A DNA stretch of 64,000 bases from a bacterium (GTDB lineage: Bacteria > Fidelibacterota > Fidelibacteria > Fidelibacterales > Fidelibacteraceae), in assembly GCA_963676395.1 (NCBI GenBank), contig OY781066.1:704001-768000 (forward strand), in the 5' to 3' direction. The notes beneath the pieces were generated by a model. It did no database searches, was not told the origin of the DNA, and saw nothing but the letters and a program-made list of their open reading frames with translations. Position numbers and translations under genes: made by a program. This document shows, in pieces, positions 7,738 through 26,118 of the stretch; the first letter of the stretch is position 1; each line of letters opens with the position of its first letter.

Positions 7738-7738
7738 T

Positions 7739-8803: not shown

Positions 8804-8954
8804 AATTCGATGAATCGATAGCTCACTCATTTAATTGTTCACTCATTCGACCATTATACTATTCAAAAAATATCCTTTGGAATTCTAAGCGGCTTATCCT
8901 AATTTTATTCAACTTAAATAAATATGACATGATAAATCTTTATGGGGCGACGAA

Positions 8955-9794
8955 ATGGATAAGATCATGGAAGCTTATAGCAATTTATTAACACAAAAAC
9001 GCTACAGTCCCAATACCCAAAAAACATATATGGGATATTTTTCCGATTTCCGAAGATATTTCCGATTTAAAGACATCTATCATATTGGCAAAGATGAAAT
9101 CAATCGATATATCCTAGATCTTATTCAGACAAATAATATTTCTCCGAGTCAGCAAAATCAACGCATTAATGCAATCAAATTCTACTATGAAAAGGTTTTA
9201 GGTCGAGAGAAAGAGTATTATAACATTCAGCGACCAAAAAAAGAATATCATTTACCCAAGGTTCTAAGCAAAAAAGAAATAAAATGCATGATTCAATCAT
9301 GTGAAAACCTTAAACATAAATGTATTTTAATGATACTTTATTCGGCCGGATTAAGGCGTAGTGAATTATTAGATCTACAAATTGACGATATTGATTCCAA
9401 AAGAATGTTAATCTTGATCAAAGGTGCCAAAGGTAACAAAGACAGAATAACACTTTTATCCGAAAGGCTACTTAGCATGCTTCGGGATTACTATAAAAAA
9501 TACAAACCCGAAAAATATTTATTCGAAGGTCAAAGAGGAAATAAGTATTCAGCTTCTAGTGTTGCCAATATTCTTAAACATGCAACCCTCAAGGCAGGGA
9601 TCAGAAAAAATGTTACACCTCATATGCTTAGACATAGTTTTGCCACACATTTACTTGAACAAGGAACTGATTTAAGATATATTCAAGAGTTATTGGGCCA
9701 TAATAGCAGCAAAACAACAGAAATTTACACTCATATATCAAAAAAAACGATTACAAACATACAAAACCCTATGGATGACATGTTTGAAACATAA
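8955..9794 (+). CDS. Tyrosine recombinase/integrase, putative cassette-array integrase
   Basis: SAM-like N-terminus (YSPNTQKTY...SQQNQRINAIKFYY) and intact catalytic residues (GLRRSE, KGNKDR, HMLRH, LLGH, TEIYTH); no IntI-type insertion between KDR and HxLRH. Confidence 0.92.
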   Translation: MDKIMEAYSNLLTQKRYSPNTQKTYMGYFSDFRRYFRFKDIYHIGKDEINRYILDLIQTNNISPSQQNQRINAIKFYYEKVLGREKEYYNIQRPKKEYHLPKVLSKKEIKCMIQSCENLKHKCILMILYSAGLRRSELLDLQIDDIDSKRMLILIKGAKGNKDRITLLSERLLSMLRDYYKKYKPEKYLFEGQRGNKYSASSVANILKHATLKAGIRKNVTPHMLRHSFATHLLEQGTDLRYIQELLGHNSSKTTEIYTHISKKTITNIQNPMDDMFET

Positions 9795-9811
9795 ATGCAA
9801 AATAAACACAA

Positions 9812-9876
9812 TAAACAATACATGCCATATTGGAGATGTATACACAATAGGCATACACTAACGTTGTGCCCAATTA
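9812..9876 (+). other. Putative primary (attI-like) recombination site
   Basis: CATACACTAAC-GTTGTGCCCAAT (9852-9874) resembles the right arm of the repeats but has no full left arm; short hairpin ATGCCATATTG/CAATAGGCAT (9822-9854). Confidence 0.6.
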
Positions 9877-9896
9877 AATGAAAAGACTACATAGTT

Positions 9897-10766
9897 ATGG
9901 AAGAAGAACTTAATTCAGAGATTAAAAAGTTGATTCCAAAAGTGTATGATGATGCATTACAACCATCAGTCATTGAGATTGGCAAATCAATAAAGGAAAC
10001 TGTTAAACTCGCCTTGAAACCCTACAATGGAATAATTTGGTCAATTGATAAATCTTTCGACTGGTTAACAAACACAATATCTCAAAGAGTTGAAAACTAT
10101 AAAATCAAAAAGATAAAAGCTCCGAATATTGAGACCACAATTAAGGTTATTCAGGGAGTACAGACAACAGGAGCACTAAATGATTTTGTTCCAAGACATC
10201 TATTTGCCAATCTATTGTTTTCGGAAATAAATGCAGAATACGGACATGAAACCCATCCAGCTTATGCAGAACTTTTAAAACAATTTACTCAAGAAGAATG
10301 TAAAATTTTATGCGTCATTGCAAATAGACCTTTATCAATATATTCAACAAGTACATTAAGCGATAATTATTTTGACTATAACTACAAGGAGAAAGAAAAA
10401 ATAAGATATAGCAATGAAACTCATGATTTACAAATAAAATGTGGATTTACAGAAACTGCACCTTTAAGTCTTTACATTGACAACTTATTAAGACTAGGTA
10501 TTATAGAAAGACAATCTACCAAACATGATGAAATACCAAGCTCTACAAAAGAAGAAGCATCTGTTTATCATAGAGAACTTAAACTATTTGAGGAATATCA
10601 AAAACGATATAAAAATGATAGTCGTTGTCCAAAAAGTGTAAAAATCAGAATTGATATAATTAAACCAACATATTTTGGTCAAAACTTTTTAGGTGCAATT
10701 GGTGCCAGCCAGTTTTATGACCACTACAGTAATATTTTTATAAAGCCAGATTGGATAAAAGATTAA
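9897..10766 (+). CDS. Abi-alpha (DUF4393)-like protein, cassette 1
   Basis: N-terminal PKVYDDALQPSV.EIGK, LFANLL...HPAYAELLKQ and IDNLLRLGII patterns. Confidence 0.65.
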   Translation: MEEELNSEIKKLIPKVYDDALQPSVIEIGKSIKETVKLALKPYNGIIWSIDKSFDWLTNTISQRVENYKIKKIKAPNIETTIKVIQGVQTTGALNDFVPRHLFANLLFSEINAEYGHETHPAYAELLKQFTQEECKILCVIANRPLSIYSTSTLSDNYFDYNYKEKEKIRYSNETHDLQIKCGFTETAPLSLYIDNLLRLGIIERQSTKHDEIPSSTKEEASVYHRELKLFEEYQKRYKNDSRCPKSVKIRIDIIKPTYFGQNFLGAIGASQFYDHYSNIFIKPDWIKD

Positions 10767-10785
10767 ACCTTTAAAGAAGACTAAT

Positions 10786-11403
10786 ATGTTTTTTAAAACA
10801 CCAAACATCAAGATTGAAAAAATTGGGAATGTCGAAATCAATCCTCATTATCATCCGATTTTTGAAAAAATTGCTTACGATACGTTTCAAAAATTTATAG
10901 AAAAGGAAAACAAGTTACATCAGGTACAATCTTTATCTGACCAAAAGGTTAAAAAAACAAAGTTTTTAAAAACGATTGACCTACTTGGAAAAATCATATC
11001 AATTATTTCGGGTATTGCAATAGTTGTATTTGTGATTTTTTTACTTGCTGGTAAAACATCAATTGGTAGTGTGCAAGTATCAACTCTTTTAACAGTTATT
11101 AGTTTCACTTTGATTGGTGGAATTATTTCTATTGGCGGTGTGCAAATGTTTTCTTTTAATGCCTCGTTGAGAAAGAGTGAAAATAAAATAAGAGAACACC
11201 TAAATCGAAATTTGGAATGTCCCTTTGATAGAATACTAAAAACTGATAACCCAAATTGGCACAATAGACAGCCGGGAAATCCAGATTTTTGTATGCGCTG
11301 TCCATTAGGGATTGATATTTCAGGTAATGTAGAGGGTGGACTAATACATGTTTGTAAAGTATACATGAATTATCATAAAAGGTGGTTAGACAACAAACAA
11401 TAA
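10786..11403 (+). CDS. Hypothetical two-TM protein with Cys-rich C-terminus, cassette 1
   Basis: Two hydrophobic segments; CPF...FCMRCP...HVC; stop codon abuts repeat 1. Confidence 0.6.
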   Translation: MFFKTPNIKIEKIGNVEINPHYHPIFEKIAYDTFQKFIEKENKLHQVQSLSDQKVKKTKFLKTIDLLGKIISIISGIAIVVFVIFLLAGKTSIGSVQVSTLLTVISFTLIGGIISIGGVQMFSFNASLRKSENKIREHLNRNLECPFDRILKTDNPNWHNRQPGNPDFCMRCPLGIDISGNVEGGLIHVCKVYMNYHKRWLDNKQ

Positions 11404-11546
11404 CTGGGCACAACATTTTGTATAAGTAATGGCAGGCGATGTAGTAAATATCAATGTTTGTAGCGCGCTCAAACTGCGTAGCGGTTTGACAGGAAACTAC
11501 CACGCAATCTGCCACTACTCATACAATTTACCGTTGTGTGTAATGC
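11401..11546 (+). repeat. attC-like cassette site, copy 1
   Basis: TAACTGGGCACAAC...TTGTATAAGTAATGGCAG...CTGCCACTACTCATACAA...GTTGTGTGTAATGC. Confidence 0.9.
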
Positions 11547-11562
11547 AAAAAAAAGACAGTAC

Positions 11563-14328
11563 ATGAAATTTAAAACCCAACATTTAAGAAATATTATAGA
11601 TGCTAACAATGATAATCGATTAGCGATTTTTGTTGGAGCTGGAGTTTCAAAAAATTCTGAAACTAAAGGACTAAAACTTCCAATATGGCAGGATTTAATT
11701 GATGATTTGAAGAAAGATTTAGAATTAACAAGTGAGACAGACTTTTTAAAAATAGCACAACTTTATTATCTGGAATTTAAAGAGTATTCATATCTTAAAA
11801 AACTAAAAAAATATTTTCCTGATAACATAAGACCTTCTTCAATACACAAACAAATATTTGATTTAAATCCTCAAGTAATTATTACAACTAATTGGGATAC
11901 AATTCTTGAGAAAACGATAGAAGAAAATGCATATATCTATGATGTAATTCGTTGTGATGAAGATTTAGTTAAATCCACAATTCAAAAGAAAGTGATTAAA
12001 ATGCATGGAGATTTTAAAAATCACAATATAGTTTTCAAAGAAGATGATTACTTGAATTATCAATATAATTTTCCATTAATCGAAAATTACGTAAAAAGCA
12101 TTTTGTCTACTCACACTGTACTTTTTTTTGGTTATTCATATAATGATATCGATTTCAAACAAATAATGAAATGGTTGCAAAATTATTCAAAAGTACAACC
12201 GCCAAGATATTTAACTGTCTTTTATGAAAATTCAACACAAAATAAGTATTTAGAAAATCATGGAATAACCACATTTGTGCTTGATGAACCCAATAGTTCA
12301 ATGAATCTTCAAAGCGACTATACTGAGAATACAAAGTATTTCTTAGATTTAATAAAAGATGATGAAAGAATTAACTTCTTAAAAACTGAGAATGACATTA
12401 TCGATTTTGTTTTCAATAAATTAAAGGTGCTTTCTGAACTCAATGGTATTTTAATTGAGCAAATACAAACCTCATTGACTAATTGTGGTTTTCTGTATGA
12501 TGATAGCAATAAAACAATATTGGAATTTCGAGATAAAATACTCACATATGACTTAAATAAAGAAAAGAGAAATATATATAAGGAATTTGTAAAAATACTA
12601 AACGCGCAAGACGATAAAGGATTATCAAACAAAACTTTATATAGTATTTTTGAAATTTTAAGTAAAGCCAATATACAAGGAATTGTTATCACTGAAGACG
12701 ACTTATCAACTAGAGAAAAGAAATATATAGTTCTAGATGATTATTTAACAGATAAAGAATTCAATCTTGAATCAAAGTACCTTGATTTTGATTTTTCATT
12801 TGAGGACAAATCAACAAATGATATTTATGAATTGCTTCAAAAATCATTCATTTTATATCAGCTTGAAGATTACGAAAAAGCATATGAGATTGTTGAAAAA
12901 ACAATAATACAGTGTTTAAAGCAAAAAAATTATACTGTTTTATTTATTTCAATGTTTAATAAAAATGTTCTTCTCTGGAAATTGAAATATGGCTTTTTTC
13001 AAAATAGAAAAGTATATGAAGATATTGAAGAATATAATTTAGAAGAGAAGTTTAATCAGCTTCCAAAAGATTTACAAGGAGCACTTAAGCCAATTTACAA
13101 CTTCTTAAACTCTTGTTATTTATATATATTTGCATATAGAATATCAGAAGAATTAAATAAAAAAGAGGGATCTAAAAAAACTATAGAATCTGGTGGTTTT
13201 GTTTTAAATTCTAATATTACCGAATCTTCTTCAAAGCATAAAAATCTAATTTCATTTATACTCCGCAACGGAATAATTTTAGAAGGGAGAAGCGAATTTC
13301 AAAGTATCAATAAATATTTCCTGAAAATTTCTATTATAAGACAGGTTCAGAATAAAGCAACTACATTTAACGAAATAGAGTTTTTTTCAGCGATAAAGTA
13401 TCTTTCGAATAAAGAATTAAAACATTTACTATCTGAATTTTACAAATATGATTCTGACAAAAAGGGCAAATTTGAAATTTCAGAAGAAAATAAAAATTGG
13501 TTAATTAATAAGGTGTTGATAAATCTTGTAAAAAGATATATAAACTCCGACAATGCGTTTAATACATTTGAAAAATACTTAGAAAATACAATCTTCTTAC
13601 TTTCATTAACAAAACTATCAGATGATGAAATTTCAAAAATTTTAGAAAGCTTTAATAACATTATCGATAAAGCTAAAAACACAATTGGAATTTACGAATC
13701 AATAAATCTTTTCTTGGGAAACCAATATAATCTTCATAATACATCCATTAATGAAAGTTCATTACTTAATTTGATAAAATCTATCATTAATAAATTTGTA
13801 AGCAAGCAATATAATGGATACGATTTTCATGCAATTACACGCAATGAAATTTCGAATTTATATGGTTATGCAAGAGAACAAAAAGCAATATTTAAAGAAA
13901 AAGCATTGATTAATAAATTAATTGATGCATCAAAAGAACTACCAATAGAAGAACAATTAAATATTTCAGAATCTCTTCTTCTTAGTATTTATGATATTTC
14001 TACTGATGAAATTAAGACCAAAATTAAAGAATATATTTTGAGCATAAAATCAAGTGAAACAAAAGAAAAACATGATTATTTAATATTTGAGCTCATCTTA
14101 GTTATTCGTGATTTTAAAAATTTAGAAACAGATTTAATCAAAGAGCTTGAAGAATATTTTGAACCATATAAAGACTCAAAGTCATTTTCTTCAATTTGGT
14201 ATTCAATAGATAGTCAGATAGATTATTTAATAAAAGAAAAGCAACTAACTCAGCTCAAAGAAGTTTCTTCAACGATAAAAACGTTAATAGAAAACTTTAA
14301 GAAAAGTGAAAGATTTTCAATACTTTAA
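11563..14328 (+). CDS. SIR2-domain NADase, DSR2-like defence protein, cassette 2
   Basis: FVGAGVS, ITTNWD, KMHGD and KEDDYLNY..NFPLI...THTVLFFGYS, plus long helical C-terminus; ATG at 11563 because the GTG at 11536 lies in the repeat. Confidence 0.82.
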   Translation: MKFKTQHLRNIIDANNDNRLAIFVGAGVSKNSETKGLKLPIWQDLIDDLKKDLELTSETDFLKIAQLYYLEFKEYSYLKKLKKYFPDNIRPSSIHKQIFDLNPQVIITTNWDTILEKTIEENAYIYDVIRCDEDLVKSTIQKKVIKMHGDFKNHNIVFKEDDYLNYQYNFPLIENYVKSILSTHTVLFFGYSYNDIDFKQIMKWLQNYSKVQPPRYLTVFYENSTQNKYLENHGITTFVLDEPNSSMNLQSDYTENTKYFLDLIKDDERINFLKTENDIIDFVFNKLKVLSELNGILIEQIQTSLTNCGFLYDDSNKTILEFRDKILTYDLNKEKRNIYKEFVKILNAQDDKGLSNKTLYSIFEILSKANIQGIVITEDDLSTREKKYIVLDDYLTDKEFNLESKYLDFDFSFEDKSTNDIYELLQKSFILYQLEDYEKAYEIVEKTIIQCLKQKNYTVLFISMFNKNVLLWKLKYGFFQNRKVYEDIEEYNLEEKFNQLPKDLQGALKPIYNFLNSCYLYIFAYRISEELNKKEGSKKTIESGGFVLNSNITESSSKHKNLISFILRNGIILEGRSEFQSINKYFLKISIIRQVQNKATTFNEIEFFSAIKYLSNKELKHLLSEFYKYDSDKKGKFEISEENKNWLINKVLINLVKRYINSDNAFNTFEKYLENTIFLLSLTKLSDDEISKILESFNNIIDKAKNTIGIYESINLFLGNQYNLHNTSINESSLLNLIKSIINKFVSKQYNGYDFHAITRNEISNLYGYAREQKAIFKEKALINKLIDASKELPIEEQLNISESLLLSIYDISTDEIKTKIKEYILSIKSSETKEKHDYLIFELILVIRDFKNLETDLIKELEEYFEPYKDSKSFSSIWYSIDSQIDYLIKEKQLTQLKEVSSTIKTLIENFKKSERFSIL

Positions 14329-14339
14329 TGTGAAAGAAA

Positions 14340-14485
14340 GCACTACACACAACATTTTGTATAAGTAATGGCAGACAATGTGGTAAATATCAAGGTTTGT
14401 AACCCGCTCCAACTGCGTAGCTGTTTGACAGGGAAGTGCTACGCAATCTGCCACTACTCATACAATTTACCGTTGGCTGCAATTG
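14340..14485 (+). repeat. attC-like cassette site, copy 2
   Basis: GCACTACACACAAC...same stem as copy 1...GTTGGCTGCAATTG. Confidence 0.9.
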
Positions 14486-14504
14486 AAATGAAACTCATCA
14501 CAAC

Positions 14505-15671
14505 ATGAAAATAAATAAACTTAGACTTGAAGGTGTTGGAGGAATAGAATTTATTGAATTAATTTTCAATAGCCAGATGAATCTTTTCTGTGGCCCTAAT
14601 GGAATTGGCAAGACAACAATTCTCGAATCCATAGCACACATTTTTTCAAATGGTCGAACGAACATTTTAAAACGGAATGTAAATAGTGCAAACAGCAAGA
14701 TTTGGATTCAAATTGATGATAGTGGACAAACAAAAGAGAAAGAAATTCATTTTGATACATTTGTGCCTGAAGTTCCAACAGAAATTAGACAAGCACTAAA
14801 TCAATACTCAAATCAAATTCTATCTTTAAAAACTAGTAGGATTTTTCAATACCAGTCATTGCAAGCCGTTAATAAAGATTCTTTAAAGGAAACACATTTG
14901 ATTTGGAATGATGCTATCAATGGCATTCAATTAGCCGATGTGAAAAACTGGTTTGTAAATAGATATTTATACTCAGCACATCCAGGAGCTTTAACAGAAG
15001 AACAACTTGCGAATTATGAATTAGCAAAATCTTGTTTTTCATTTTTAAATGAAGAGTTTTCTTTTTCAAAGGTTGATGCCTCTTCAAATGAAATTATGGT
15101 CAGTACTCCAAGTGGTACAATTTATTATGAATATTTATCATCTGGTTTTAAATCAATAATCTCAATATTATTTGGAATAATAAAGGAAATTGAATTTAGA
15201 TTTACTAATCCAAGAATAAAAGCTGTTGATTTTGAGGGGATAATTCTAATTGATGAAATAGAACTTCACTTACATCCAGAGTGGCAAGAAAAGGTTGCAA
15301 GTGTACTCTTAAAGGCATTTCCAAAAGCCCAGTTTTTTGCAACAACTCATAGTCCACATATCATTCAGACAGCGTTACCAAATCAAATAATTGCCTTGGA
15401 GGCAAGTGATAAGAAAACAATCCAGAGAGAGCTTCCTGATACTGAATTTGGATTTCAAGGATGGACAATAGAAGAAGTATTAACTGATGTAATGGGAATG
15501 AAAGATACTAGGACCGAATTATTTAATCTGCTTATGTACGATTTTCAGATAAATATAGATAAAGAAAATTATGAAGGTGCATTAAAGATATTTGAAACTG
15601 TAGATTCTTTATTGCATCCTCACAACGAACTTAGAAAACTTTTAAAATTTCAACTCGCTGGAATTAAATAG
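14505..15671 (+). CDS. ABC/AAA ATPase, PtuA (Septu)-like, cassette 3
   Basis: Walker A GPNGIGKT, signature LSSGFK, Walker B ILIDEIELHLHPEWQ and TTHSPH. Confidence 0.8.
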   Translation: MKINKLRLEGVGGIEFIELIFNSQMNLFCGPNGIGKTTILESIAHIFSNGRTNILKRNVNSANSKIWIQIDDSGQTKEKEIHFDTFVPEVPTEIRQALNQYSNQILSLKTSRIFQYQSLQAVNKDSLKETHLIWNDAINGIQLADVKNWFVNRYLYSAHPGALTEEQLANYELAKSCFSFLNEEFSFSKVDASSNEIMVSTPSGTIYYEYLSSGFKSIISILFGIIKEIEFRFTNPRIKAVDFEGIILIDEIELHLHPEWQEKVASVLLKAFPKAQFFATTHSPHIIQTALPNQIIALEASDKKTIQRELPDTEFGFQGWTIEEVLTDVMGMKDTRTELFNLLMYDFQINIDKENYEGALKIFETVDSLLHPHNELRKLLKFQLAGIK

Positions 15672-15678
15672 AAATTAA

Positions 15679-16422
15679 ATGATTAAGCTTAATAGACTTT
15701 TTACACCTCTCGGATTATCTCCAGCTTTTATTAAAGCACAAACACTTGAATTTAAAACAAATGGAACAAATGTATGGAATGTTAACTGGTTAAAAGAATC
15801 GCTACTACAGTTAAGTTTTCAAAAATGTGCCTATTGTGAATGTTCTTTGAGCGTTGAAAGTAATTATATGGAAGTTGAGCATTTTGAAGACAAAAGTGAT
15901 TACCCAGATAAAGTTTTAATTTGGGAAAACCTTATTCCTTCTTGCAAGAAATGTAATGGTTCGAAAAGTACTCACGATGTAAATAAAGAACCAATTGTTA
16001 ATCCATTTATCGATAATCCCTCTGATGAATTTTATTTTAGATTATACAAGATAAAAGGAATTAAAGAAAAGGGTATTCGAACAGAATCCATATTAAATTT
16101 AAATCACCCTGAAAGAGCAATAAAAAAACGATTTGAAATTGGTGAAGCCTTAGAAAACTTAATTGAACAAGCATTTGAACGGTTGATTAATTTTGAGGAA
16201 AGTTCAACCGTACTTCGAAGAAACAAGCTAAATAATATTGTTGAAGAAATTCTACAAGAGAGTCAACCTGAATCTATATATTCTGCAACTTGTGCAACAA
16301 TTCTTCATTCATGTTTGAGATATAATGAAATCAAGATAAAAATGGAAAAATTAGGTTTATGGACTTCAGAATTTGATAATTTACATGAAAAATCGAAAGA
16401 AATTGTACTAGAAATGAAATAA
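15679..16422 (+). CDS. HNH endonuclease, PtuB (Septu)-like, cassette 3
   Basis: KCAYCE...EVEHF...WENLIPSCKKCN..K; directly after the ATPase. Confidence 0.8.
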   Translation: MIKLNRLFTPLGLSPAFIKAQTLEFKTNGTNVWNVNWLKESLLQLSFQKCAYCECSLSVESNYMEVEHFEDKSDYPDKVLIWENLIPSCKKCNGSKSTHDVNKEPIVNPFIDNPSDEFYFRLYKIKGIKEKGIRTESILNLNHPERAIKKRFEIGEALENLIEQAFERLINFEESSTVLRRNKLNNIVEEILQESQPESIYSATCATILHSCLRYNEIKIKMEKLGLWTSEFDNLHEKSKEIVLEMK

Positions 16423-16566
16423 CAACTGCTGCCAACAATGTATATACAAAATAGGCGAGATAGTAGTAAATTCAAGGGTTGTAGCCCGCTTCAAAATTGT
16501 GACGGTTTGACAAGTTTGAAGCCCGCAATCGCCTACTTTGCATATACTTACCGTTGGCAACAATAC
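16423..16566 (+). repeat. attC-like cassette site, copy 3
   Basis: CAACTGCTGCCAAC-AAT-GTATATACAAAATAGGCGA...TCGCCTACTTTGCATATAC-TTACC-GTTGGCAACAATAC. Confidence 0.9.
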
Positions 16567-16598
16567 AGGACACACCTCAGTTGTAAAGATTATGAAAT

Positions 16599-19115
16599 AT
16601 GATTGAAAAGAAAATTGACAAATCTATTCTCCTTGATGATTTGGAGCTATTTAAATATTTAAAGGATAATGATAGTGAATTCGTATCGTTAATTGATGAT
16701 ATAAATGCCAAAGTTAAGAACCTGCTCAATAGTGGTATACCAAAAGTATTTTCATCATACACCTTACATGACATTGAACATTCATATCGGATAATAAAGT
16801 ATATGAGTGACATTATTCCTGATATTTCAAAATTAAATGAACTTGAAATTACTATTCTGATACTTGTTGGATTGTTGCATGATGTTGGAATGGCTGTGTC
16901 CACAGAGGATTTAGAGTTAATTAAAAATGATAATTACCCTCATTTTGATGTGAAGTTTTCTGCAACTAAAAAATATGTTGGAGGTGATGAAAACTTAGCA
17001 TTGCAGGAATATATAAGAATGTATCATGCTCAAATGTCGGGAATATACATTGAAGAAAAGTTAAAAGACAAGCTGAAAATTTCTGAAAACTCTACCTTAT
17101 CTTTCATGGATGATGTTATTAAAATCTGTAGAAGTCATACTGAGTCATATGAATGGATTAAGCAAAATTTGAATCCGTACACTGTATTAGGTGATTATGA
17201 ATACAATTCCTTATATATTTCTCACTTATTGAGACTTGGAGACATCCTAGATATTGATGAAAAAAGAACTCCTTTAAGCTTGTATAACTTGATAGCTCCT
17301 AAAGGTAAAAGTGAAGAGGAATGGGATAAGCATTTCATAATTCAAAATTATGAGAAAATTGAAATAAATCCGAAATCAAAATTAAAGCAGATTGCTTTTC
17401 ATGGTCATTGTTCTAACGCACATATACACCGTAAATTACTAGAATTTTTTGATTGGGTTAATGAGGAACTTTTGAATGCATTAGCATCAACGAATAATAT
17501 GCAAGAGCAGTATAGGCTAAATCTCGAAAATTCAATCCTTCAAAATATTGTAACCGAGGGCTACACATTTTCTGATTATAAAATGAAACTCGATTTTGAA
17601 GCAATTAGTTCTTTATTGATGGGGGAAAAAATATATGGAGGAAAAGAACTAGGATTAAGGGAGCTTATTCAAAATTCGATAGATGCATGCCGATATAGGA
17701 CAGAATTAGAAAACATAGGAAAAGAATTTGGCGAAATAGATTATGAGCCTAAAATAAAAGTTATTGTAGACAGTAAAAACCAGATTATTTCAATAAAGGA
17801 TAATGGGGTAGGTATGTCAATTGGTGTAATAAAGAATCACTTCTTGAATATTGGCAAATCTTATTATAATTCATCCGAATTCTTGTTGCAAGATGTCGAG
17901 TATAAACCAATAGGAAATTTTGGAATTGGGTTCCTTGCATGCTTTATGTTATCTAATAATATTAAAGTAGTGACTAGATATTATAATAGCCAAGACAAAT
18001 ATATTATTGAACTTGAAAAAGGAAACGAATTTACATCTATGTTGAAATCAAATGACGTAAGATTTGAAGGGACGGAAGTTGTTTTTAATCATGATGAATT
18101 TATGAGTGTTTTCAATGATAAAATTGAAGATATATCAAATTTTCTGAAAAAATATTTTATTACTGATGGCATTGAATTAGAACTTATAAATGTAGATAAG
18201 AAAGAACGGATTTCTATCGAAAATAAATTTGACAAAAACATAACACCAGATAAAGGATTTCTAATTGATTTAAGTTCTTATTTAAAGGAAATAGAAGGCT
18301 ATGCGATTGTTAAACACCGCAATAGCTTTATTCACACTTTAGATGATATTGGCTTTGAAGGTGAACTTTATTTTTATGATTATGAAAAGGGATTATATGA
18401 AGTAGAGGATTTATCGAAAGTTGATATTGATTTTTATATACTTAACAATAGAATTAGATATTTCAATATTCCATTAGTTGAAAATGAAAATGTATCTGAT
18501 TACCTCAATGGTTTAAGATATACTGATGATGATGTATCAGAAGTAATTGATAAAATGGTCAATGACTTAAGATGGATTTCTATACTCCCTCAAAGAGATA
18601 CTGATTCAATGATGTCTGACCAAATTATAGATAATGGAGATACTTTTTTTGACAATTTAGAGTTCAGCGACTTAGTAAAATTAGGTCACGATGACACATG
18701 TAAAACAAAGATGTTTGAGAAAGAGCAAAATATATTTGAAGGAGAAAAAAGTAACTTATATATGCCTTTTGAGCAAAAAGAAGACAATTACTGGAGATAC
18801 TATTATAGAAAAAAAGAAAAACAAAATTTGTATGTAAGAAATGTTTTAATCAAGGACTTTGATTTTTCTTTTAATACTAAAGCATCCATTTTTGACATAA
18901 ATGATGTAATAGTCAATGTACAATCAAAAAAAGTTGTTCCTGATATTTCTAGAAATAATTTGGATTCAGAAACAGAAAATAGACTTAACTATTCGATAAG
19001 CAGAGCAATTCATATTGGATTACTTAATAGTGAAAAATTGTTAGATAATGAAAGAGAAACTCTTAAGTTATTTATTGATGAGTTTTATACTGACAAAACT
19101 GAATTTGATAAATAA
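16599..19115 (+). CDS. HD-CE domain plus HSP90-like GHKL ATPase, cassette 4
   Basis: YTLHDIEHS..LLHDVGM..LRLGDILD HD motifs; LRELIQNSIDA, DNGVGM and GNFGIGFLACFM GHKL motifs. Confidence 0.8.
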   Translation: MIEKKIDKSILLDDLELFKYLKDNDSEFVSLIDDINAKVKNLLNSGIPKVFSSYTLHDIEHSYRIIKYMSDIIPDISKLNELEITILILVGLLHDVGMAVSTEDLELIKNDNYPHFDVKFSATKKYVGGDENLALQEYIRMYHAQMSGIYIEEKLKDKLKISENSTLSFMDDVIKICRSHTESYEWIKQNLNPYTVLGDYEYNSLYISHLLRLGDILDIDEKRTPLSLYNLIAPKGKSEEEWDKHFIIQNYEKIEINPKSKLKQIAFHGHCSNAHIHRKLLEFFDWVNEELLNALASTNNMQEQYRLNLENSILQNIVTEGYTFSDYKMKLDFEAISSLLMGEKIYGGKELGLRELIQNSIDACRYRTELENIGKEFGEIDYEPKIKVIVDSKNQIISIKDNGVGMSIGVIKNHFLNIGKSYYNSSEFLLQDVEYKPIGNFGIGFLACFMLSNNIKVVTRYYNSQDKYIIELEKGNEFTSMLKSNDVRFEGTEVVFNHDEFMSVFNDKIEDISNFLKKYFITDGIELELINVDKKERISIENKFDKNITPDKGFLIDLSSYLKEIEGYAIVKHRNSFIHTLDDIGFEGELYFYDYEKGLYEVEDLSKVDIDFYILNNRIRYFNIPLVENENVSDYLNGLRYTDDDVSEVIDKMVNDLRWISILPQRDTDSMMSDQIIDNGDTFFDNLEFSDLVKLGHDDTCKTKMFEKEQNIFEGEKSNLYMPFEQKEDNYWRYYYRKKEKQNLYVRNVLIKDFDFSFNTKASIFDINDVIVNVQSKKVVPDISRNNLDSETENRLNYSISRAIHIGLLNSEKLLDNERETLKLFIDEFYTDKTEFDK

Positions 19116-19260
19116 GTACTGTTGGCAACAATGTGTATAGTGCATAAGGGTTTCAGAGGTTTTCGAGCATTATCACCCACATCAATTTTGGGTGGTAACT
19201 TGACAGGTTTGAAGCCCGCAACCCCTTACGACACCATACACTCAACGTTAGCGGTAATTT
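19116..19260 (+). repeat. attC-like cassette site, copy 4
   Basis: GTACTGTTGGCAAC-AAT-GTGTATAGTGCATAAGGG...CCCTTACGACACCATACAC-TCAAC-GTTAGCGGTAATTT. Confidence 0.9.
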
Positions 19261-19295
19261 AAACTCCAGAAATTGGACCTAATAACATCAAAATT

Positions 19296-19985
19296 TTGAA
19301 AGAAAAAGACACATGCTGTTACTGTGGTAAGAACTCTGAGTCAAGAGACCATATCCCATCCAAAAATTTATTGGAAAAACCATTTCCAGATAATTTATTA
19401 ACAGTACCGTCTTGCATAAAGTGTAATCAATCATTTTCATTAGACGAAGAATATTTTCTAAATGTATTAGTTGAGATTTCAAACAATCCGACTTTAATCG
19501 CAAAAAAAGAGCCTAACGGTAATGTTTATAAAGCACGAAAGCGGTCAAAAAAATTAAATGATAGAATTGAAAATTCATTGATTCAGTTAGAAGATGGAAA
19601 AATCTATTTTAGAATGGAAGAAAACAGAATTAAAAAAGTTATAGAGAAAAATGCACTTGGACTCTACTTCCATAAATACCATAAACTTGCTAACCTGAAT
19701 AAATTTAATTGTACTGGATTCTATCCGTTTTCAGTTGAAGAAACAAGACCTGCAGAAATTTTCATGTTGACTTATTCTGAAAAATTTAGAGCCAAAAGAT
19801 GGACAACAATTCAAGAGAATGTTTTTTCATATATAGTTGTACGAGATTGGAGGAGAGGAAAAAAATTGACAATGATTTTTCATATTCATAACACAGTATG
19901 GTGTATTATTGAAATTCCATTTCCAACATCAACGAAAAGATTAAAAAGACAAAAGAATTCTCATACTGAAAAAATAAATTTATGA
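19296..19985 (+). CDS. HNH-like endonuclease
   Basis: CCYCG...RDHIPSK...TVPSCIKCN; TTG start. Confidence 0.7.
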   Translation: MKEKDTCCYCGKNSESRDHIPSKNLLEKPFPDNLLTVPSCIKCNQSFSLDEEYFLNVLVEISNNPTLIAKKEPNGNVYKARKRSKKLNDRIENSLIQLEDGKIYFRMEENRIKKVIEKNALGLYFHKYHKLANLNKFNCTGFYPFSVEETRPAEIFMLTYSEKFRAKRWTTIQENVFSYIVVRDWRRGKKLTMIFHIHNTVWCIIEIPFPTSTKRLKRQKNSHTEKINL

Positions 19986-20398
19986 ATAAACCACAAAAAT
20001 ACATTATTTCATTTCTACCTGCTGCAATATTTTTGTTCAACCAAATATTGATAATGTTTATTCGACCGATTATTCCTGCCAATAGATTTGAGTTACTATC
20101 AGAAATATTTGGTTGGTTACCCAACTATTTAGCTTCAGTCGGATTTGTTCTTATGAGTATGCTCCTATTAATAATTATAAAGGAATTAAAGCTGGATAAA
20201 AAGTACGCACGTTATTATAATATATATATGATTTTTATATCAGTGATTGCATTATTTGGTTTTATATGGTGGGAAAATCAACAGAAAAACAACTCGATGA
20301 TATATGATTTAAAAGATATTTATGCAACAGTTTGCGGCGTTATTACTGGATATTCAATATTTTTAATATTATACTTTAAACATAAATTCAACAACTAA
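19982..20398 (+). CDS. Hypothetical four-TM membrane protein
   Basis: Four hydrophobic segments; WLPNYLA and D..D..AT..G patterns. Confidence 0.6.
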   Translation: MNKPQKYIISFLPAAIFLFNQILIMFIRPIIPANRFELLSEIFGWLPNYLASVGFVLMSMLLLIIIKELKLDKKYARYYNIYMIFISVIALFGFIWWENQQKNNSMIYDLKDIYATVCGVITGYSIFLILYFKHKFNN

Positions 20399-20448
20399 AA
20401 GATATTAATTCTGATAAATTAACGAACAAGTTGACTTTAAATGACAAA

Positions 20449-20593
20449 CACCAGCATACAACAATGTGTATAATTCATAAGGGTTTCAGAGGTTTTCGAT
20501 CGGTTTCACCCGAATCAATTTTGGGTGGTAACTTGATAAGTTTGAAGCCCACAATCCCTTACGAAATCATACACTTAACGTTAGCGTGTATTA
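20449..20593 (+). repeat. attC-like cassette site, copy 5
   Basis: Core highly similar to copy 4: ATACAAC-AAT-GTGTATAATTCATAAGGG...CCCTTACGAAATCATACAC-TTAAC-GTTAGCGTG. Confidence 0.88.
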
Positions 20594-20645
20594 CCACAAC
20601 AGAGACATAGATCGCAAAGTTTCTTTATAGGAATATTTAGCTAAA

Positions 20646-21089
20646 ATGAGAATTGAGAAAATTATCAATAACAAAAAGAAATACCTTGATTTATTGCTGT
20701 TAGCGGATGAGTCAGAGGATATGATTGACAGATATTTGGAAAGTGGAGATATGTTTGCACTATTCGATGATGACGTTAAAACTGTTTGTGTTGTTGCTGC
20801 AATAGATAAAGAAACTTGCGAATTGAAAAACATAGCAACTTATGAGAAATATCAAGGTAGAGGATATGCTAAAGCATTAATAAATTATATTTCTAATTTT
20901 TACAAAAACGATTATAAAACAATGCAACTCGGAACAGGCGATATCCCAGCAATTTTGTCATTTTATGAAAATTGCGGATTCAAAATATCACATCGATTAA
21001 AGAATTTTTTTACTGACAATTATGACCATCCAATGTTTGAAGACGGAATACAGCTTATAGATATGGTTTATCTAAAGAAAAAATTATAA
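20646..21089 (+). CDS. GNAT family acetyltransferase
   Basis: [15 protein letters not shown]...YQGRGYAK and FYENCGF motifs. Confidence 0.88.
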
Positions 21090-21105
21090 TAGCTAAATTA
21101 TTAAG

Positions 21106-21285
21106 ATGAAATCCATTGATGTAAAACAAGCAATAGATAGTGATGTCGAAAGAACAACCCGGTTATTTTATGATACAATTCAGAATGTCAATATAAGGGA
21201 TTATTCCCAGGAAGAGGTTGACGATTGGTCATCATGGAAAACTGATACAAATAAGTGCTTGGATAAAATGAAATTGAGAAATTAA
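21106..21285 (+). pseudogene. Truncated YafP-like GNAT (N-terminal 59 aa)
   Basis: Manual translation MKSIDVKQAIDSDVERTTRLFYDTIQNVNIRDYSQEEVDDWS... stops before the acetyl-CoA motif. Confidence 0.6.
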
Positions 21286-21340
21286 TTAATGAATATTCAA
21301 AAAATTAAATTACCGGCATAACAGGTGAACTATATAAGAC

Positions 21341-22339
21341 ATGAGATTACAAATAAAACATAAAGAATTGAAGAGATTGAAAAAAAGAACAGGATTTACC
21401 ATTACTATTTTTGTTGCAATTATGAATGTTATTACAATACATGCGCAAACCAGGTCACTTAAAGAAACTGATTTAATTTGTTCAAATAATGAAAAACCTC
21501 ATGTCGCATTTTCTTTTGATGATGGTTCAACAAAAGACAAACTTACTTACAAAAATTCGGAATGGAATTCGATGATACGAAAACAACTGAAGGATAATCA
21601 TATTCAAGCAGTTTGGTTTGTTGCGGCAAAAGGAATGGATAACGACAAAGGTAAACAGTTGTTGGAAAAGTGGAACAAAGATGGCCATCTGATCGCAAAT
21701 CACACGTATAGCCATTTCAATTACAATGATTCTTTAATGACTTGTAAAGCATATACCAAAGATATACTGAAATGCGATTCATTGATAAGCAGTTATACAA
21801 ATTATAAAAAAATAGTTCGCTTTCCGTATTTAAACGGAGGTAACACTATCTCGAAACGAGACAGCTTGCTTGATTTTCTTCAACAAAATGATTATCGGCA
21901 AGGATGGGTAACTATTGATAATTGTGAATGGTATATAAATATGAGATTGATGAATCGTTTAAAAGAAAATCCTGATGCCGATTTTAGTGGATTTGGAGCG
22001 TATTACGTTAATCATATTTTCGAAATGGCACAACATTACAATAAGCTTTCAACTCAGATTAATCAACGGCAAATAACACACTCTCTCTTATTGCATTTCA
22101 ATCTGACTTCAGCACTGTTTTTAAATGATTTGATTGAAAAATTCAGAAAAGAAGGATGGATAATTGATAATTACAGCGAAGCAATGAATGACCCGGTTTA
22201 TTCAGGTCAACCTATTGCAATACCATCCGAACAAAGTATAATTTGGATGCAAGCAAAGCAAAAAGGTGGATTTGAATTAGATTACGATGAAGAAAACATC
22301 AAACATCAGGAAGACAAAATGGCTAAATTGGGATTATAA
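21341..22339 (+). CDS. Polysaccharide deacetylase (NodB-like)
   Basis: FSFDDG, IANHTYSH, RFPYL and LLLH motifs; start uncertain. Confidence 0.85.
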   Translation: MRLQIKHKELKRLKKRTGFTITIFVAIMNVITIHAQTRSLKETDLICSNNEKPHVAFSFDDGSTKDKLTYKNSEWNSMIRKQLKDNHIQAVWFVAAKGMDNDKGKQLLEKWNKDGHLIANHTYSHFNYNDSLMTCKAYTKDILKCDSLISSYTNYKKIVRFPYLNGGNTISKRDSLLDFLQQNDYRQGWVTIDNCEWYINMRLMNRLKENPDADFSGFGAYYVNHIFEMAQHYNKLSTQINQRQITHSLLLHFNLTSALFLNDLIEKFRKEGWIIDNYSEAMNDPVYSGQPIAIPSEQSIIWMQAKQKGGFELDYDEENIKHQEDKMAKLGL

Positions 22340-22356
22340 AAATTACTCCCAATACT

Positions 22357-22656
22357 ATGCTTGATTTCGGATCATCACAAAATCCATTGGTAACAAGTGT
22401 ACATCATCAATCAGTAAAGAAAACAGGGGAAAATTTCCGGGTAATTGCAACGTCATTAGATAGAAAAGTCGTAGAAGCTATTGCCAATACAAAATTTAAG
22501 AATGTTTACGGCGTTCAGTTTCATCCGGAGTTTTCAACTTTATATAAACAGAAAGAGTTTAGAAATTCAAAAAACAATATTGTTTCATTTAACGATAATG
22601 ATAAACAATTTCTTAAACATTTTTGGAAAGATTTCAGTTTAAGATTATATGCTTAA
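22357..22656 (+). pseudogene. C-terminal fragment of peptidase C26 / gamma-glutamyl hydrolase
   Basis: VTSVHHQSV...VEAI...GVQFHPE present; nucleophile-containing N-terminal half absent. Confidence 0.7.
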
Positions 22657-22757
22657 AAAACAAAGAAAACGATGGGCATGTCCATCATGTGGTGGTGTCG
22701 TTTATTTTTATCATTACAGATGTAGTAAATGTGATAAAACTGTAGATGTGTGATTTT

Positions 22758-22915
22758 CCACATCGCCTAACAGCGAATATGCTCTACGGCTTCGCCTTGG
22801 CCTTCTTCAAATTAACCCTTTGAATATTTTCTAAAAAATTATGATATTACTCTATAGAATATATTCACACCCACAAAGGGCTGAGTTTACTTCATATTTT
22901 CGTTAACGGCAATTA
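22758..22915 (+). repeat. Divergent attC-like site, copy 6
   Basis: GCCTAAC (22765-71)..GAATATG...CATATTTTC-GTTAACGGCAAT (GTT at 22902); interior unrelated to copies 1-5. Confidence 0.55.
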
Positions 22916-22931
22916 AACAAGAGAGACAAAC

Positions 22932-24113
22932 ATGACACAGAGAACACTTACTTTACTCCTCATTTTACTCTTAAGCTTCATTGGAACTGAGAGTTTGAAA
23001 GCACAGCAAAACACAGTCAAGCAAGATGAAACTATTTTTGTTTGGGGCGGAGATATTAACACAAAGTTTGTCCAATATGTCGCTGATCTGACAAAAAAAG
23101 AACATCCCAAAATCTGTTACTTACCAACGGCAAGTGCAGACAACCCGGATAATATTAAATATTGGGAAAATATATGTAATAGGTTACAATTAGATACTCT
23201 AATTCTAAAAGTGTGGGTAAGTTCTTCAGATAAAAATCAATCATTTGAAGACATCCTTCTGAACTCTGATGCCATCGTGGTTGGCGGGGGTAATACCTTG
23301 AATATGCTGGGAATTTGGAAAGCGCAAGGCATAGATAATATTTTGAAAAAAGCATTAAAAAATGGAATAATTTTATCGGGAGGAAGTGCCGGTTCAATAT
23401 GTTGGTTTCAGAACGGTATCAGCGATTCACGCCCTGTCAACTTAAGTATTGTCAAAGGCTTGGGTTTTTTACCTTTTAGCAATTGCCCGCATTACTCACA
23501 AGAATCAAGGAAAGACTTATATCATCAAATGATAAAAAACAGGAAAATGAATCCGGGTTATGCAACTGATGAGCTATCCGGAATCCTTTTCAAAAATGGG
23601 AAAGCTGTAAAATCCATCAGCCAAAGCGACCTACACAAGGCTTATTTTGTAAATCGTAAAAAAGGAATAATTAAAGAGACTAAACTCAAATCAGACTTTT
23701 TACTTAAGAAAAATGCTCTTCCTGAAGGCTCTTATTCCTCCCAATCCATAAAAAAGAAAATTAATGATCTATTAGATTCCAATGACAGTTCCTCGCCAAT
23801 GAATGCGTGTATTTCTGACATAAAATCCATAAGATTAAACAAAGAGAACATGAGTGAATCGGCAAAGAAAAAAGTGTTGGATATGGGTATCGAAAAAATA
23901 TTCATTTACCAAAATAAAATAGCTGGAATTGTTAACAACGCCTACCTTGACTCTTTTGGATATGGCATGTGGTATTATTATAACTGCAACGGTATTTGGA
24001 AAAGTATGGGAGAAGACATAGGCGGAAAAACAATATTTGAAAGTGAAATTACATTTCGGGAAAAAGCAAAAACAATTATCAAAAAAGCTGAAAATAAATT
24101 AAACTGCCGCTAA
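22932..24113 (+). CDS. Secreted peptidase E (S51)-like protein
   Basis: Signal peptide; LPTAS, VGGGNTLNML, GGSAGS and CPHY motifs; stop codon falls in the TAAC core of the next site. Confidence 0.85.
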   Translation: MTQRTLTLLLILLLSFIGTESLKAQQNTVKQDETIFVWGGDINTKFVQYVADLTKKEHPKICYLPTASADNPDNIKYWENICNRLQLDTLILKVWVSSSDKNQSFEDILLNSDAIVVGGGNTLNMLGIWKAQGIDNILKKALKNGIILSGGSAGSICWFQNGISDSRPVNLSIVKGLGFLPFSNCPHYSQESRKDLYHQMIKNRKMNPGYATDELSGILFKNGKAVKSISQSDLHKAYFVNRKKGIIKETKLKSDFLLKKNALPEGSYSSQSIKKKINDLLDSNDSSSPMNACISDIKSIRLNKENMSESAKKKVLDMGIEKIFIYQNKIAGIVNNAYLDSFGYGMWYYYNCNGIWKSMGEDIGGKTIFESEITFREKAKTIIKKAENKLNCR

Positions 24114-24205
24114 CATTTTGTTTAAGCAAAAGCCGGGAAATACCGCACACTCCAACAATTTACTGTTGATAGCAAGTGCAGCAGAGCCACAGAGTACTTA
24201 AACAA
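24101..24205 (+). repeat. Degenerate attC-like site, copy 7 (right GTT core lost)
   Basis: AAACTGCCGCTAAC-ATT-TTGTTTAAG ... CTTAAACAA. Confidence 0.55.
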
Positions 24206-24225
24206 CCACTAAAAAAGATTAAAAT

Positions 24226-24900
24226 ATGGGATACTATATTAACTTAGAAAAAATATCAATTGATGATTATCGGATAAAATTAGAATCAGCTTATCTGCCA
24301 CCGAGCAGACTGATCCTTAAGGACAAATTGGATGAACGATTTGGATATTTTAAGAGCATTGGAATTAAAAATGTTAAAGAATTGATACAGATACTCAAAA
24401 AAAAGGACAAAATAGCTGAACTATCAAAAGTTGATTGTTTATCGGGTGATTATTTGAAAATATTGCTTAGAGAATTAAACAGTACACTACCAAAACCTAA
24501 TAAGTTTGCCGATTTTACTGGAATTTCACAAGAAACAGTTGATAAACTAAAAAATATTGGCATAAAAAATACAGCGAAATTGTATGATAAAGTTTTAACA
24601 AAATCAGACCGGCAAAAGCTTACTGAGGCAACAGGCATAGCTGACAAAGAGATTTTAGAATTGACTAAATTGACAGATTTATCAAGAATTAAATGGGTTG
24701 GAGTGACGTTTGCCAGAATGCTTTACGATTTAAAAATAGATACAGTGGAAAAAGCATCAAAATCTGACCCGGTCAATTTACATTCAATGATAAACCAATT
24801 AAATAAGGAAAAAAGCATTTATAAAGGACAAATTGGATTGAACGACATTAAAATATTCGTGAATGCCGCAAAAGAAATACCTTTGGAGATAGAATATTAA
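24226..24900 (+). CDS. DUF4332-like helix-hairpin-helix protein
   Basis: KLKNIGIKNT...DLSRIKWVGVTFARMLYD..IDTV pattern. Confidence 0.7.
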   Translation: MGYYINLEKISIDDYRIKLESAYLPPSRLILKDKLDERFGYFKSIGIKNVKELIQILKKKDKIAELSKVDCLSGDYLKILLRELNSTLPKPNKFADFTGISQETVDKLKNIGIKNTAKLYDKVLTKSDRQKLTEATGIADKEILELTKLTDLSRIKWVGVTFARMLYDLKIDTVEKASKSDPVNLHSMINQLNKEKSIYKGQIGLNDIKIFVNAAKEIPLEIEY

Positions 24901-24975
24901 TAAATAAACAAAAAATTATGCACACCCTCATACCTTACTTGCAATATACTCAACATTAAATAAGCAAATCTCTTT

Positions 24976-25001
24976 AAACTTCTGCCAACATTTTAACCGT
25001 T
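24976..25001 (+). repeat. Collapsed terminal site remnant
   Basis: AAACTTCTGCCAAC-ATTTT-AACCGTT: left end ACT-N6-AAC joined almost directly to the ACCGTT right end. Confidence 0.45.
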
Positions 25002-25018
25002 CAACTTTTCAACCCCAC

Positions 25019-25045
25019 AAAAAAAGGACCCGTTTCCGGATCCTC
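25019..25045 (-). terminator. Intrinsic terminator of yitT-like gene
   Basis: Minus strand GAGGATCCGGAAACGGGTCCTTTTTTT. Confidence 0.75.
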
Positions 25046-25076
25046 ATATTTCTTCGTTATCCGTTGTTAACGGATC

Positions 25077-25958: not shown

Positions 25959-26118
25959 AAACGCCTCCACCAAAAATTGAGAGAATATAATCCTTTGAGA
26001 ATCAAGAGACAAGTGACAAATATAAAGAAATATGAGGGGGCTCAACATGTCGAGTCCCGGTATTATTCGGTCTGGATATATTCATATTCAATATCAATTT
26101 TCATATTCAATTAAAACT

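Follow-up and report, generated by a model that had tools for sequence, protein, structure and literature searches.

Background

Arrays of co-oriented genes headed by a recombinase gene have been described from Bacteroidales as rAID-1 systems (Ross et al. 2019; 10.1101/471110). According to the accessible text of that report, they combine a conserved XerD-family recombinase with up to 31 orphan immunity genes, occur in 226 of 423 Bacteroidales genomes, are skewed in GC content and contain repetitive intergenic sequences that make the co-oriented arrays "reminiscent of integrons". The criteria applied there were an identity above 44 % between the 5' XerD-like recombinase and B. fragilis BF9343_RS08045 and, following it, two or more co-directional genes with a GC content ≤41 % (10.1101/471110). 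The accessible parts of the rAID-1 publications report sequence motifs, but are silent on crossover point, folded strand and any rule for a docking site, and those of a 2025 preprint (PMC12247911) name rAID biogenesis as an open question. The present study concerns a locus of this appearance, comprising a tyrosine recombinase gene and the genes following it (8955–25005, 16 kb), in a window of 64,000 nucleotides that corresponds to positions 704001–768000 of a single-contig 2.34-Mb genome; coordinates are those of the window unless they exceed its length. Judged by its features, the segment is most probably an integron-like cassette platform of the Bacteroidota "recombinase-associated array" kind, of which rAID-1 is the described member.

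Integrons, which include a co-oriented "inverted integrase" group, cross over at G|TT, the bases after the GTT of a site belonging to the next cassette and the start of a cassette complementing the left core of its own site. Sedentary chromosomal integrons carry anti-phage cassettes (Darracq et al., 10.1101/2024.07.02.601686; accessible text), and in the accessible part of the IntegronFinder 2.0 preprint only one complete integron is given for Bacteroidetes.

The array of the window shares with rAID-1 the co-directional downstream genes of low GC content (14 open reading frames, ORFs; 30.0 % GC) and conserved repetitive intergenic sequences, but differs in cargo, which consists of orphan immunity genes in rAID-1 and is anti-phage in the proximal part of the present array. 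The likeness to integrons extends further. As with attC, the sites are imperfect palindromes with AAC/GTT cores that are conserved more in structure than in sequence, fold better as bottom strand and have flanks pointing to a G|TT crossover; a docking site lies beside the integrase gene, and clusters without integrase as well as defence cargo are found. In contrast to IntI with its ~42-aa insertion, however, the recombinase lacks this insertion, scores below the TIGR02249 cut-off and would belong to a sister clade, and its gene points into the array. Whereas attC sites carry extrahelical bases in the L box, the predicted stem has no evident ones, the asymmetry being placed in an internal loop. 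With XerA, XerC and XerD the recombinase shares a simple two-domain architecture and NF040815 as best family. Xer dimer resolvases, in contrast, are conserved single-copy housekeeping enzymes acting at dif, while the gene studied here is patchy (13 of 41 genomes), is accompanied in the host by a separate XerD and a XerC-like gene, lies in a low-GC insert and is tied to cassette arrays.

Results and discussion

Putative recombination sites

Five related repeats of ~143 nt separate the proximal cassettes: r1, an attC-like site (11402–11546), r2 (14341–14485), r3 (16424–16566), r4 (19117–19260) and r5 (20450–20593), all with the minus strand as folding strand. Each has AAC near its left and GTT near its right end, the latter at 11533–11535, 14472–14474, 16553–16555, 19247–19249 and 20580–20582, respectively. 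Mean column identity over all five is 74 %, with highest similarity between r1 and r2 (85 %) and between r4 and r5 (84 %). Five folding repeats running from AAC to GTT had already been noticed in a first-pass annotation made from the sequence alone, as had the position of stop codons at the left site end, and both observations were borne out: stop codons abut or overlap the site at 11403, 16422, 19115 and 24113, while those at 14328 and 20398 are separated from it by 12 and 51 nt. On a covariance model built from r1–r5 themselves, these copies score 130–148 bits, values that are partly high by construction; derived from five copies of one genome, the model is narrow and misses a short (~60-nt) site type. 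An Rfam scan of positions 8000–26000 at E ≤1 yielded no family.

Folded as single-stranded DNA, the bottom (−) strand attained a lower energy than the top strand in all five copies, with z-scores of −1.8 to −5.5 as compared to −0.6 to −4.9. The consensus fold of r1–r5 comprises 38 predicted pairs, 15 of which show compensatory changes. A wider alignment encompassed 74 sites from the window, from other clusters of the host genome and from 30-odd loci of other genomes, and was fitted to the covariance model, which favours the model's structure. In this alignment 86.9 % of the cells pair, versus 66.7 % after shuffling and 35–44 % with slid partners, and the covariation score is 0.390 as opposed to 0.116 (shuffled) and 0.050–0.077 (slid partners). 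The pairing signal is considered real because of the slid-partner control and the number of pair types. A terminal 5-bp helix, which contains the AAC/GTT cores, and an 18-bp stem are ~95 % paired, with compensatory change at 17 of the 18 stem pairs; inner helices are poorly conserved across the 74 sites, and the tip of the site is therefore variable. At three pairs the bottom strand has G-U in almost every site (74/74 for one of them), where the top strand has A-C mismatches. According to the fold model, these invariant G-T wobbles would allow only the bottom strand to fold well. The predicted stem is continuous apart from the wobbles, without obvious extrahelical bases, and a length asymmetry is predicted in the internal loop between terminal helix and stem.

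Towards the distal end the sites are decayed. Of three eroded repeats postulated earlier, only r7 (24102–24178, minus strand) matches the covariance model (17.6 bits, E 0.025); this copy of the r1/r2 type has suffered an internal deletion, but retains both ends (77–80 % identity). The degenerate r6 (22762–22905, minus strand) retains consensus-like ends (AAC 22769–22771, GTT 22902–22904), but has no covariance-model match, and its bottom strand folds no better than shuffled sequences (top strand z −2.2). The third is a 22-nt remnant (24984–25005, plus strand) composed of AAC, 8 nt and CGTT, which yields neither a model match nor a fold; the array ends with it, shortly ahead of the convergent yitT. 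A comparable mini-site lacking a hairpin (AAC, 8–10 nt, CGTT) also terminates, after the last gene, the array of the related genome G035 (L032, ~1985–2015).

Flank footprint and docking site

In a flank test covering all consecutive model matches less than 6 kb apart in the host genome and related loci (35 pairs), the reverse complement of the 9 nt before the AAC of a site was compared with the 9 nt after GTTs. The mean match was 6.63 of 9 for the GTT of the preceding site, 3.94 for the own GTT and 3.22 for the GTT of sites from other sources; the preceding flank matched better in 30 pairs, worse in one and equally in four. Undetected intermediate sites would lower the score, and the test is thus conservative. 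Many pairs reach 8/9, the recurring single mismatch being A/G, i.e., a G-T wobble on the bottom strand only. Cassettes 2, 3 and 4 of the window fit the rule with 8, 7 and 7 of 9, and the left flank of r7 matches the flank of r6 at 7/9 when read by eye. This complementarity is interpreted as the footprint of circular cassettes recombined at G|TT.

An attI-like docking site is located at 9795–9875 (plus strand), where two direct repeats of ~10–14 nt precede the putative crossover GTT at 9863–9865, 69 nt beyond the stop of the recombinase gene. Of the 9 nt that follow this GTT, 8 agree with the reverse complement of the r1 left flank, so that the primary site indeed lies at the 3' end of the integrase gene, as the first-pass annotation had placed it. 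Among 66 loci encoding homologues of the recombinase, many contain within 130 nt after the stop codon two direct repeats of 10–16 nt, followed by a motif of the form TATA-ACAA-GTT, and the docking-flank relation was recognized by eye, with 7–9 of 9, in L052, L058, L060, L064, L067, L072, L074, L078 and L079.

It is conceivable, though unlikely, that the sites are recombined as ordinary double-stranded DNA in a Xer-like manner, the palindromes being pairs of binding sites and not folding as single strands. An enzyme devoid of the IntI insertion and a stem without extrahelical bases would suit such a mode, as would the closest solved structures by sequence, which are archaeal XerA-type (4a8e, Pyrococcus XerC-like/XerA, 155.9 bits; 5hxy, XerA, 137.2 bits) ahead of IntI4/VchIntIA (2a3v, 116.5 bits). 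Binding sites would, however, not call for the extent to which the 18-bp stem covaries, nor for a variable tip, and the conserved G-T wobbles pair on one strand only, that of the better fold in 5/5 copies; the same one-strand wobble recurs in the flank footprint.

The array might also be a fossil that was built by past recombination and is now static in the host genome. Three decayed distal sites, a cassette (cassette 5) that breaks the flank rule and a truncated amidotransferase gene in another are what such a history would leave behind. Nevertheless, the recombinase ORF is intact with all catalytic motifs, the five proximal sites retain high scores (partly by construction, as the model stems from the same copies) and four of them show near-perfect flank complementarity to their own cassette start, which renders fossilization improbable.

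The recombinase

The recombinase gene (8955–9794, plus strand) is an intact ORF for a protein of 279 aa that belongs to an array-associated (rAID-type) clade of tyrosine recombinases. The product matches Phage_integrase (1.9e-44) and Phage_int_SAM_4 (3.5e-17) and displays all catalytic motifs (LRRSE at residue 133, KGNKDR 159, HMLRHS 223, GH 248, YTH 258), in agreement with the intact enzyme reported at first pass. Its best family is NF040815 (archaeal XerA/integron integrase) with 237.9 bits (cut-off 220). On TIGR02249 it remains below the cut-off of 265 with 209.8 bits, and the alignment is broken into two stretches at residue ~184; likewise, VchIntIA (2a3v) aligns in two pieces, chain residues 180–248 being skipped. 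The ~42-aa insertion of IntI is thus absent, as had been claimed, and this is also evident from the spacing between the Lys motif and HxLRH: 64 aa in the window recombinase, 59–68 aa in 64 array-associated homologues (5 more not parsed) and 65 aa in an enzyme of Parabacteroides distasonis, versus 106 aa in IntI1 and a Providencia IntI, 106–109 aa in 30 TIGR02249-positive proteins of the phylum sample and 72 aa in XerD and the XerC-like protein of the host. Since all 64 parsed homologues share the short spacing, it is a clade-wide trait and not a deletion in one IntI. The accessible text of Smyshlyaev et al. describes the insertion as "not fully conserved" in their integron-like subgroup. Most homologues are longer than the window enzyme, with ~345–485 aa from the first start codon and an N-terminal extension, while members of its own subclade have 278–282 aa.

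A quick maximum-likelihood tree was calculated from 88 proteins, including as IntI set IntI1, the Providencia IntI and 14 of the 30 TIGR02249-positive proteins (the other 16 were left out), with two or three long-branched Xer proteins as outgroup. The IntI group received 100 % support, the array-associated group 85 %, and both together were set apart from the Xer outgroups with 99 %; the window enzyme and the array recombinase of P. distasonis fall into one clade with 97 % support. As a working result, the array-associated clade would accordingly be placed as sister to IntI and not inside it, a placement that is provisional because the outgroup is small and long-branched. Of the earlier alternative "convergent with or sister to integrons", the sister relationship is the part favoured by the tree, and convergence is unlikely, the enzymes being homologous. 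Clustering of the integrase within canonical IntI, named at first pass as an outcome that would speak against a distinct system, was not seen.

That the locus represents a canonical integron whose IntI suffered a deletion is very improbable. Site ends and cassette logic are those of integrons, and the recombinase is 30 % identical to IntI1 over residues 17–276 and carries Phage_int_SAM_4, but the 59–68 aa spacing in 64/64 parsed homologues (5 not parsed), the separation of the clade from the fully supported IntI group and the TIGR02249 score below cut-off all argue for a lineage of its own.

A canonical IntI acting from elsewhere was also considered as driver and rejected, as the host genome has no TIGR02249 match (E ≤1e-40) and the sampled IntI-like loci gave only weak matches to such sites. 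With the recombinase as query (E ≤0.001), XerD and a XerC-like gene were the only other matches in the host genome. Full-length, TIGR02249-positive IntI-like genes with the insertion are present in 53 of 151 sampled genomes of the phylum, in up to several copies (nine in G045, six in G122) and often at contig ends. The covariance model gave only two weak matches (E 0.24 and 0.62) in 20 loci (259 kb) around such genes, and no obvious arrays were apparent in the three of these loci that were inspected. A shufflon or inversion system was ruled out, all sites being direct and co-oriented.

Genomic setting and further clusters in the host genome

The 16-kb segment is located between rsgA (7700–8803) and the convergent yitT (25077–26048) and is low in GC content (array 30.0 %, recombinase gene 31.8 %, genome 38.1 %); all 14 ORFs 3' of the recombinase gene are co-oriented with it, confirming that the gene points into the array. 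In all three congeners in which both genes were found (G019, G020, G016), rsgA and yitT are direct neighbours 33–306 bp apart, and the whole platform therefore constitutes an insertion in the host genome. The insertion junctions could not be recovered by comparison with the empty rsgA-yitT site of the congeners, the intergenic DNA being too diverged. A recombinase with 82 % identity is encoded on another small contig of G019. Taken together, the sequence features confirm a real gene-capture array that is integron-like and equipped with a shorter recombinase. The region upstream of the platform (6199–8803) encodes a bona fide XerD (6199–7095, 1.9 kb upstream of the recombinase gene; 362 bits on TIGR02225), a M50 peptidase-like protein and RsgA.

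Scanning the whole 2.34-Mb genome with the covariance model revealed 12 sites in four clusters, those of the window included, and one more site was found later. Outside the window, five sites are located at 1,832,340–1,839,649, two at 1,104,785–1,107,427 and one at 1,135,634–1,135,758. The three additional clusters contain no recombinase gene, and each site directly follows a stop codon; by analogy, they are the apparent counterpart of the clusters of attC sites lacking integron-integrases (CALINs). Their cargo is of non-defence type and includes a thioredoxin-domain protein, two S41 peptidases, a GNAT protein and a PHP-domain protein. The site at 1,833,773–1,833,916 has a hybrid look by eye, its left half resembling r3 and its right half r1, and may thus have arisen by homologous exchange between sites.

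The cumulative GC skew is lowest near 1.19 Mb and highest near 0.04 Mb, the window array lying at 715–729 kb. If the minimum marks the origin, the folding (bottom) strand of all four clusters is on the lagging-strand template, a number (n = 4) too small for a test. For large chromosomal integrons the opposite strand orientation has been reported. Sequence words sampled from 9700–19600 were found at 98 % in one sequencing run and at 5–9 % in six more, i.e., marine, sediment and wastewater metagenomes and one run of the same organism; no RNA run was listed, and these low shares are no evidence of habitat, strain variation or expression.

Linkage of recombinase and sites across genomes

Among 41 related genomes (host included), most of them incomplete, the recombinase was found in 13, model sites in 16 and both in 8; in G001, recombinase gene and site are ~600 nt apart, the site lying downstream. 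When one genome per species was scanned, 68 loci encoding a relative of the recombinase were obtained, nearly all from genomes titled Bacteroidota, with Flavobacteriaceae, Chitinophagaceae, Sphingobacteriales, Bacteroidales and Saprospiraceae represented. Scanning for co-occurrence of enzyme and sites with a model of copies 1–5, as proposed at first pass, was productive: in the 39 homologue loci with at least 1.5 kb of downstream sequence, 18 have co-oriented downstream sites and 3 (L109, L113, L114) have sites upstream of a divergent recombinase gene, in classical-integron geometry. Contigs break off no more than 350 nt behind the recombinase gene in 18 of the 66 homologue loci with a parsed stop codon, isolates of Mariniflexile and Flaviramulus among them; repeats or population heterogeneity at the first cassette would produce such breaks.

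The notion that the repeats are intergenic elements of the repetitive extragenic palindromic (REP) or miniature inverted-repeat transposable element (MITE) type, or terminators, unrelated to the neighbouring recombinase, is hardly tenable: they are intergenic, palindromic, placed after stop codons and present at three places of the host genome without recombinase, but the flank footprint ties each of them to its own cassette start, the docking site matches, sites recur downstream of homologous recombinases across the phylum, and no Rfam family was matched.

Cassettes and their cargo

Eight cassettes, all on the plus strand, can be delimited. Cassette 1 encodes an Abi_alpha protein (9897–10766; PADLOC PDC-S47, 2.4e-27) and a 205-aa protein (10786–11403). 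Cassette 2 harbours an ORF of 930 aa for a SIR2-domain protein (11536–14328; ThsA model, 3.7e-30), the N-terminus of which resembles ThsA; the true start is probably at a downstream ATG. Septu is encoded by cassette 3 with PtuA (14505–15671) and PtuB (15679–16422; PADLOC 7.1e-156 and 9.1e-88, respectively). Cassette 4 codes for an 838-aa protein composed of HD-CE and GHKL-ATPase domains (16599–19115; no PADLOC match) and cassette 5 for proteins of 229 and 138 aa without family match (19296–20398). The distal cassettes comprise a GNAT protein, a 59-aa ORF, a polysaccharide deacetylase and a glutamine-amidotransferase fragment (cassette 6, 20646–22656), a S51-family peptidase (cassette 7, 22932–24113) and a DUF4332 protein (cassette 8, 24226–24900). 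With PADLOC and NCBIfam, defence matches occur in three of the eight cassettes, all of them proximal, and in neither cassette 4 nor cassette 5. By family assignment, "defence array" would thus be a fair designation for the proximal half only, cassettes 6–8 being apparently metabolic or of unknown function; the initial view that the system stockpiles anti-phage genes holds for the proximal part and not for the distal GNAT, deacetylase, S51 peptidase and DUF4332 genes. Pfam, NCBIfam and PADLOC matches of the cargo included no type VI secretion system (T6SS) immunity family.

Comparison with relatives, as had been suggested, revealed no common cargo: a search of 40 relatives detected neither PtuA nor the HD-CE/ATPase protein, and when the 14 cassette proteins were compared by tblastn with all fetched loci and with the remaining genome, recurrence was seen for the GNAT protein only. 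The GNAT gene of cassette 6 has a counterpart immediately behind a model site in G035, which represents another family; identity amounts to 79 % at the protein and 80 % at the DNA level, and the similarity in DNA does not extend beyond the ORF. Relatives of PtuA were retrieved in 44 metagenome loci, three of which (L185, L186, L195) contain PtuAB (59–70 % aa identity) bounded by sites of this type. The site directly follows PtuB in L186 and L195 and lies further downstream in L185. In L186 and L195, the GTT flank before PtuA complements the left flank of the site after PtuB by 13/14 (read by eye); with PtuAB between complementary flanks, the Septu pair therefore travels as a cassette of the system.

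Relation to the described rAID-1 arrays

The first-pass annotation knew of no formal description of such a system, which did not hold: as far as the accessible text goes, homologous rAID-1 systems of Bacteroidales were described in 2019 (10.1101/471110). In a search of plasmid-record proteins, the best match of the recombinase (54.2 % identity) is a "site-specific integrase" on a record of P. distasonis. Downstream of it, in the same orientation, lie genes with the annotations T6SS immunity protein Tdi1 and SMI1/KNR4, an order that corresponds to the rAID-1 architecture. The long-site model yielded nothing convincing on this array (best 17.7 bits, upstream of the gene). Its intergenic DNA instead contains ~60-nt palindromes extending from TAAC to CCATT (8 by pattern search), of which sites 1–7 agree at 6–8 of 8 positions with the flank of the site (or docking site) before them and at 3–5 with their own; the eighth attains 5/8 when a degenerate site is skipped. 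Given the shared enzyme clade and the shared recombination logic, the window array is a relative of a described kind rather than a new kind. Differences concern the sites (~143 nt with core GTT in the window, ~60 nt with core ATT in P. distasonis) and the enzymes (279 aa, compared to 368 aa as annotated for P. distasonis, with a ~90-aa N-terminal extension).

Relative to what the accessible rAID-1 text describes, the anti-phage cargo (Septu, SIR2, Abi), the long site type and the spread beyond Bacteroidales (genomes titled Flavobacteriaceae, Chitinophagaceae and others) are new, and so would be the explicit anatomy with proposed crossover, folded strand, docking site and integrase-less clusters. 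A literature search, which did not cover subscription-only papers and preprint supplements, retrieved no description of a phage-defence or long-site form or of the mechanism.

Proposed mechanism

In the proposed scheme, a short tyrosine recombinase from a sister clade of IntI, without the IntI insertion, would be encoded at the head of the array and act on an attI-like docking site 69 nt after its stop codon, with crossover at GTT 9863–9865. A cassette would consist of one or few promoter-poor genes followed by a ~143-nt imperfect palindrome, the minus strand of which is predicted to fold into a 5-bp terminal helix (AAC/GTT), an asymmetric internal loop, a ~18-bp stem with G-T wobbles and a variable tip. 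Recombination of two sites at G|TT would release the cassette as a circle, and recombination of the circle's site with the docking site would insert it beside the recombinase gene. The flank footprints support this scheme well. Anatomy, covariation, strand asymmetry, the footprint of circles, linkage to the recombinase clade and the accessory character of platform and cargo are shown by the sequences, whereas we infer that the recombinase is the catalyst, that it acts on DNA folded as a single strand and that the array is still active. In this view, the non-defence cassettes at the distal end are the older ones, their sites decaying.

Several points weigh against this scheme and against the assignment of the platform. 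Half of the relatives with sites (8/16) have no recombinase, 5 of the 13 with recombinase have no detected sites, and 18 of the 39 homologue loci are without a model site. The tree is the product of a quick search, has an outgroup of only two or three long-branched Xer proteins and supports the array clade with 85 %. The domain by which IntI contacts extrahelical bases is absent, as are such bases from the stem, leaving the recognition of a folded strand unexplained. Decayed distal sites and the off-rule cassette 5 (19248–20593), in which the left flank of r5 matches the flank of r4 at 1/9 only, indicate that part of the array may be frozen; the mismatch may reflect duplication or secondary rearrangement. 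Despite this mismatch, r4 and r5 are 84 % identical. While the assignment as a recombinase-associated cassette platform is upheld as the most probable one, the further-reaching proposal that rAID-1 and the long-site form together constitute a true sister lineage of integrons, in which folded bottom-strand hairpins are recombined at G|TT by enzymes devoid of the IntI insertion, is tentative, with a chance slightly below even.

Conclusions

Integron surveys, in their accessible text, list almost none in Bacteroidetes, yet the phylum possesses a widespread cassette platform of its own. According to the accessible descriptions, this platform has so far been known only for T6SS immunity genes in gut Bacteroidales, whereas the array of the window banks phage defence. 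Recombinase and site model together provide a handle for mining accessory and defence genes in Bacteroidota. The long, well-preserved sites offer a testable mechanism, in which a putative G|TT crossover is combined with a defined docking site and with a bottom strand whose fold is marked by conserved wobbles, and make the origin of integron recombination accessible to testing, i.e., how a Xer-like enzyme came to use hairpin sites. The point of interest of the platform is the proposed use of a folded single strand without the IntI insertion. If a sister lineage with hairpin recombination exists, the insertion would not be needed for recombination of hairpin sites, the array enzymes may show the state from which integron integrases arose, and one type of platform would bank anti-phage as well as anti-toxin genes across the whole phylum.

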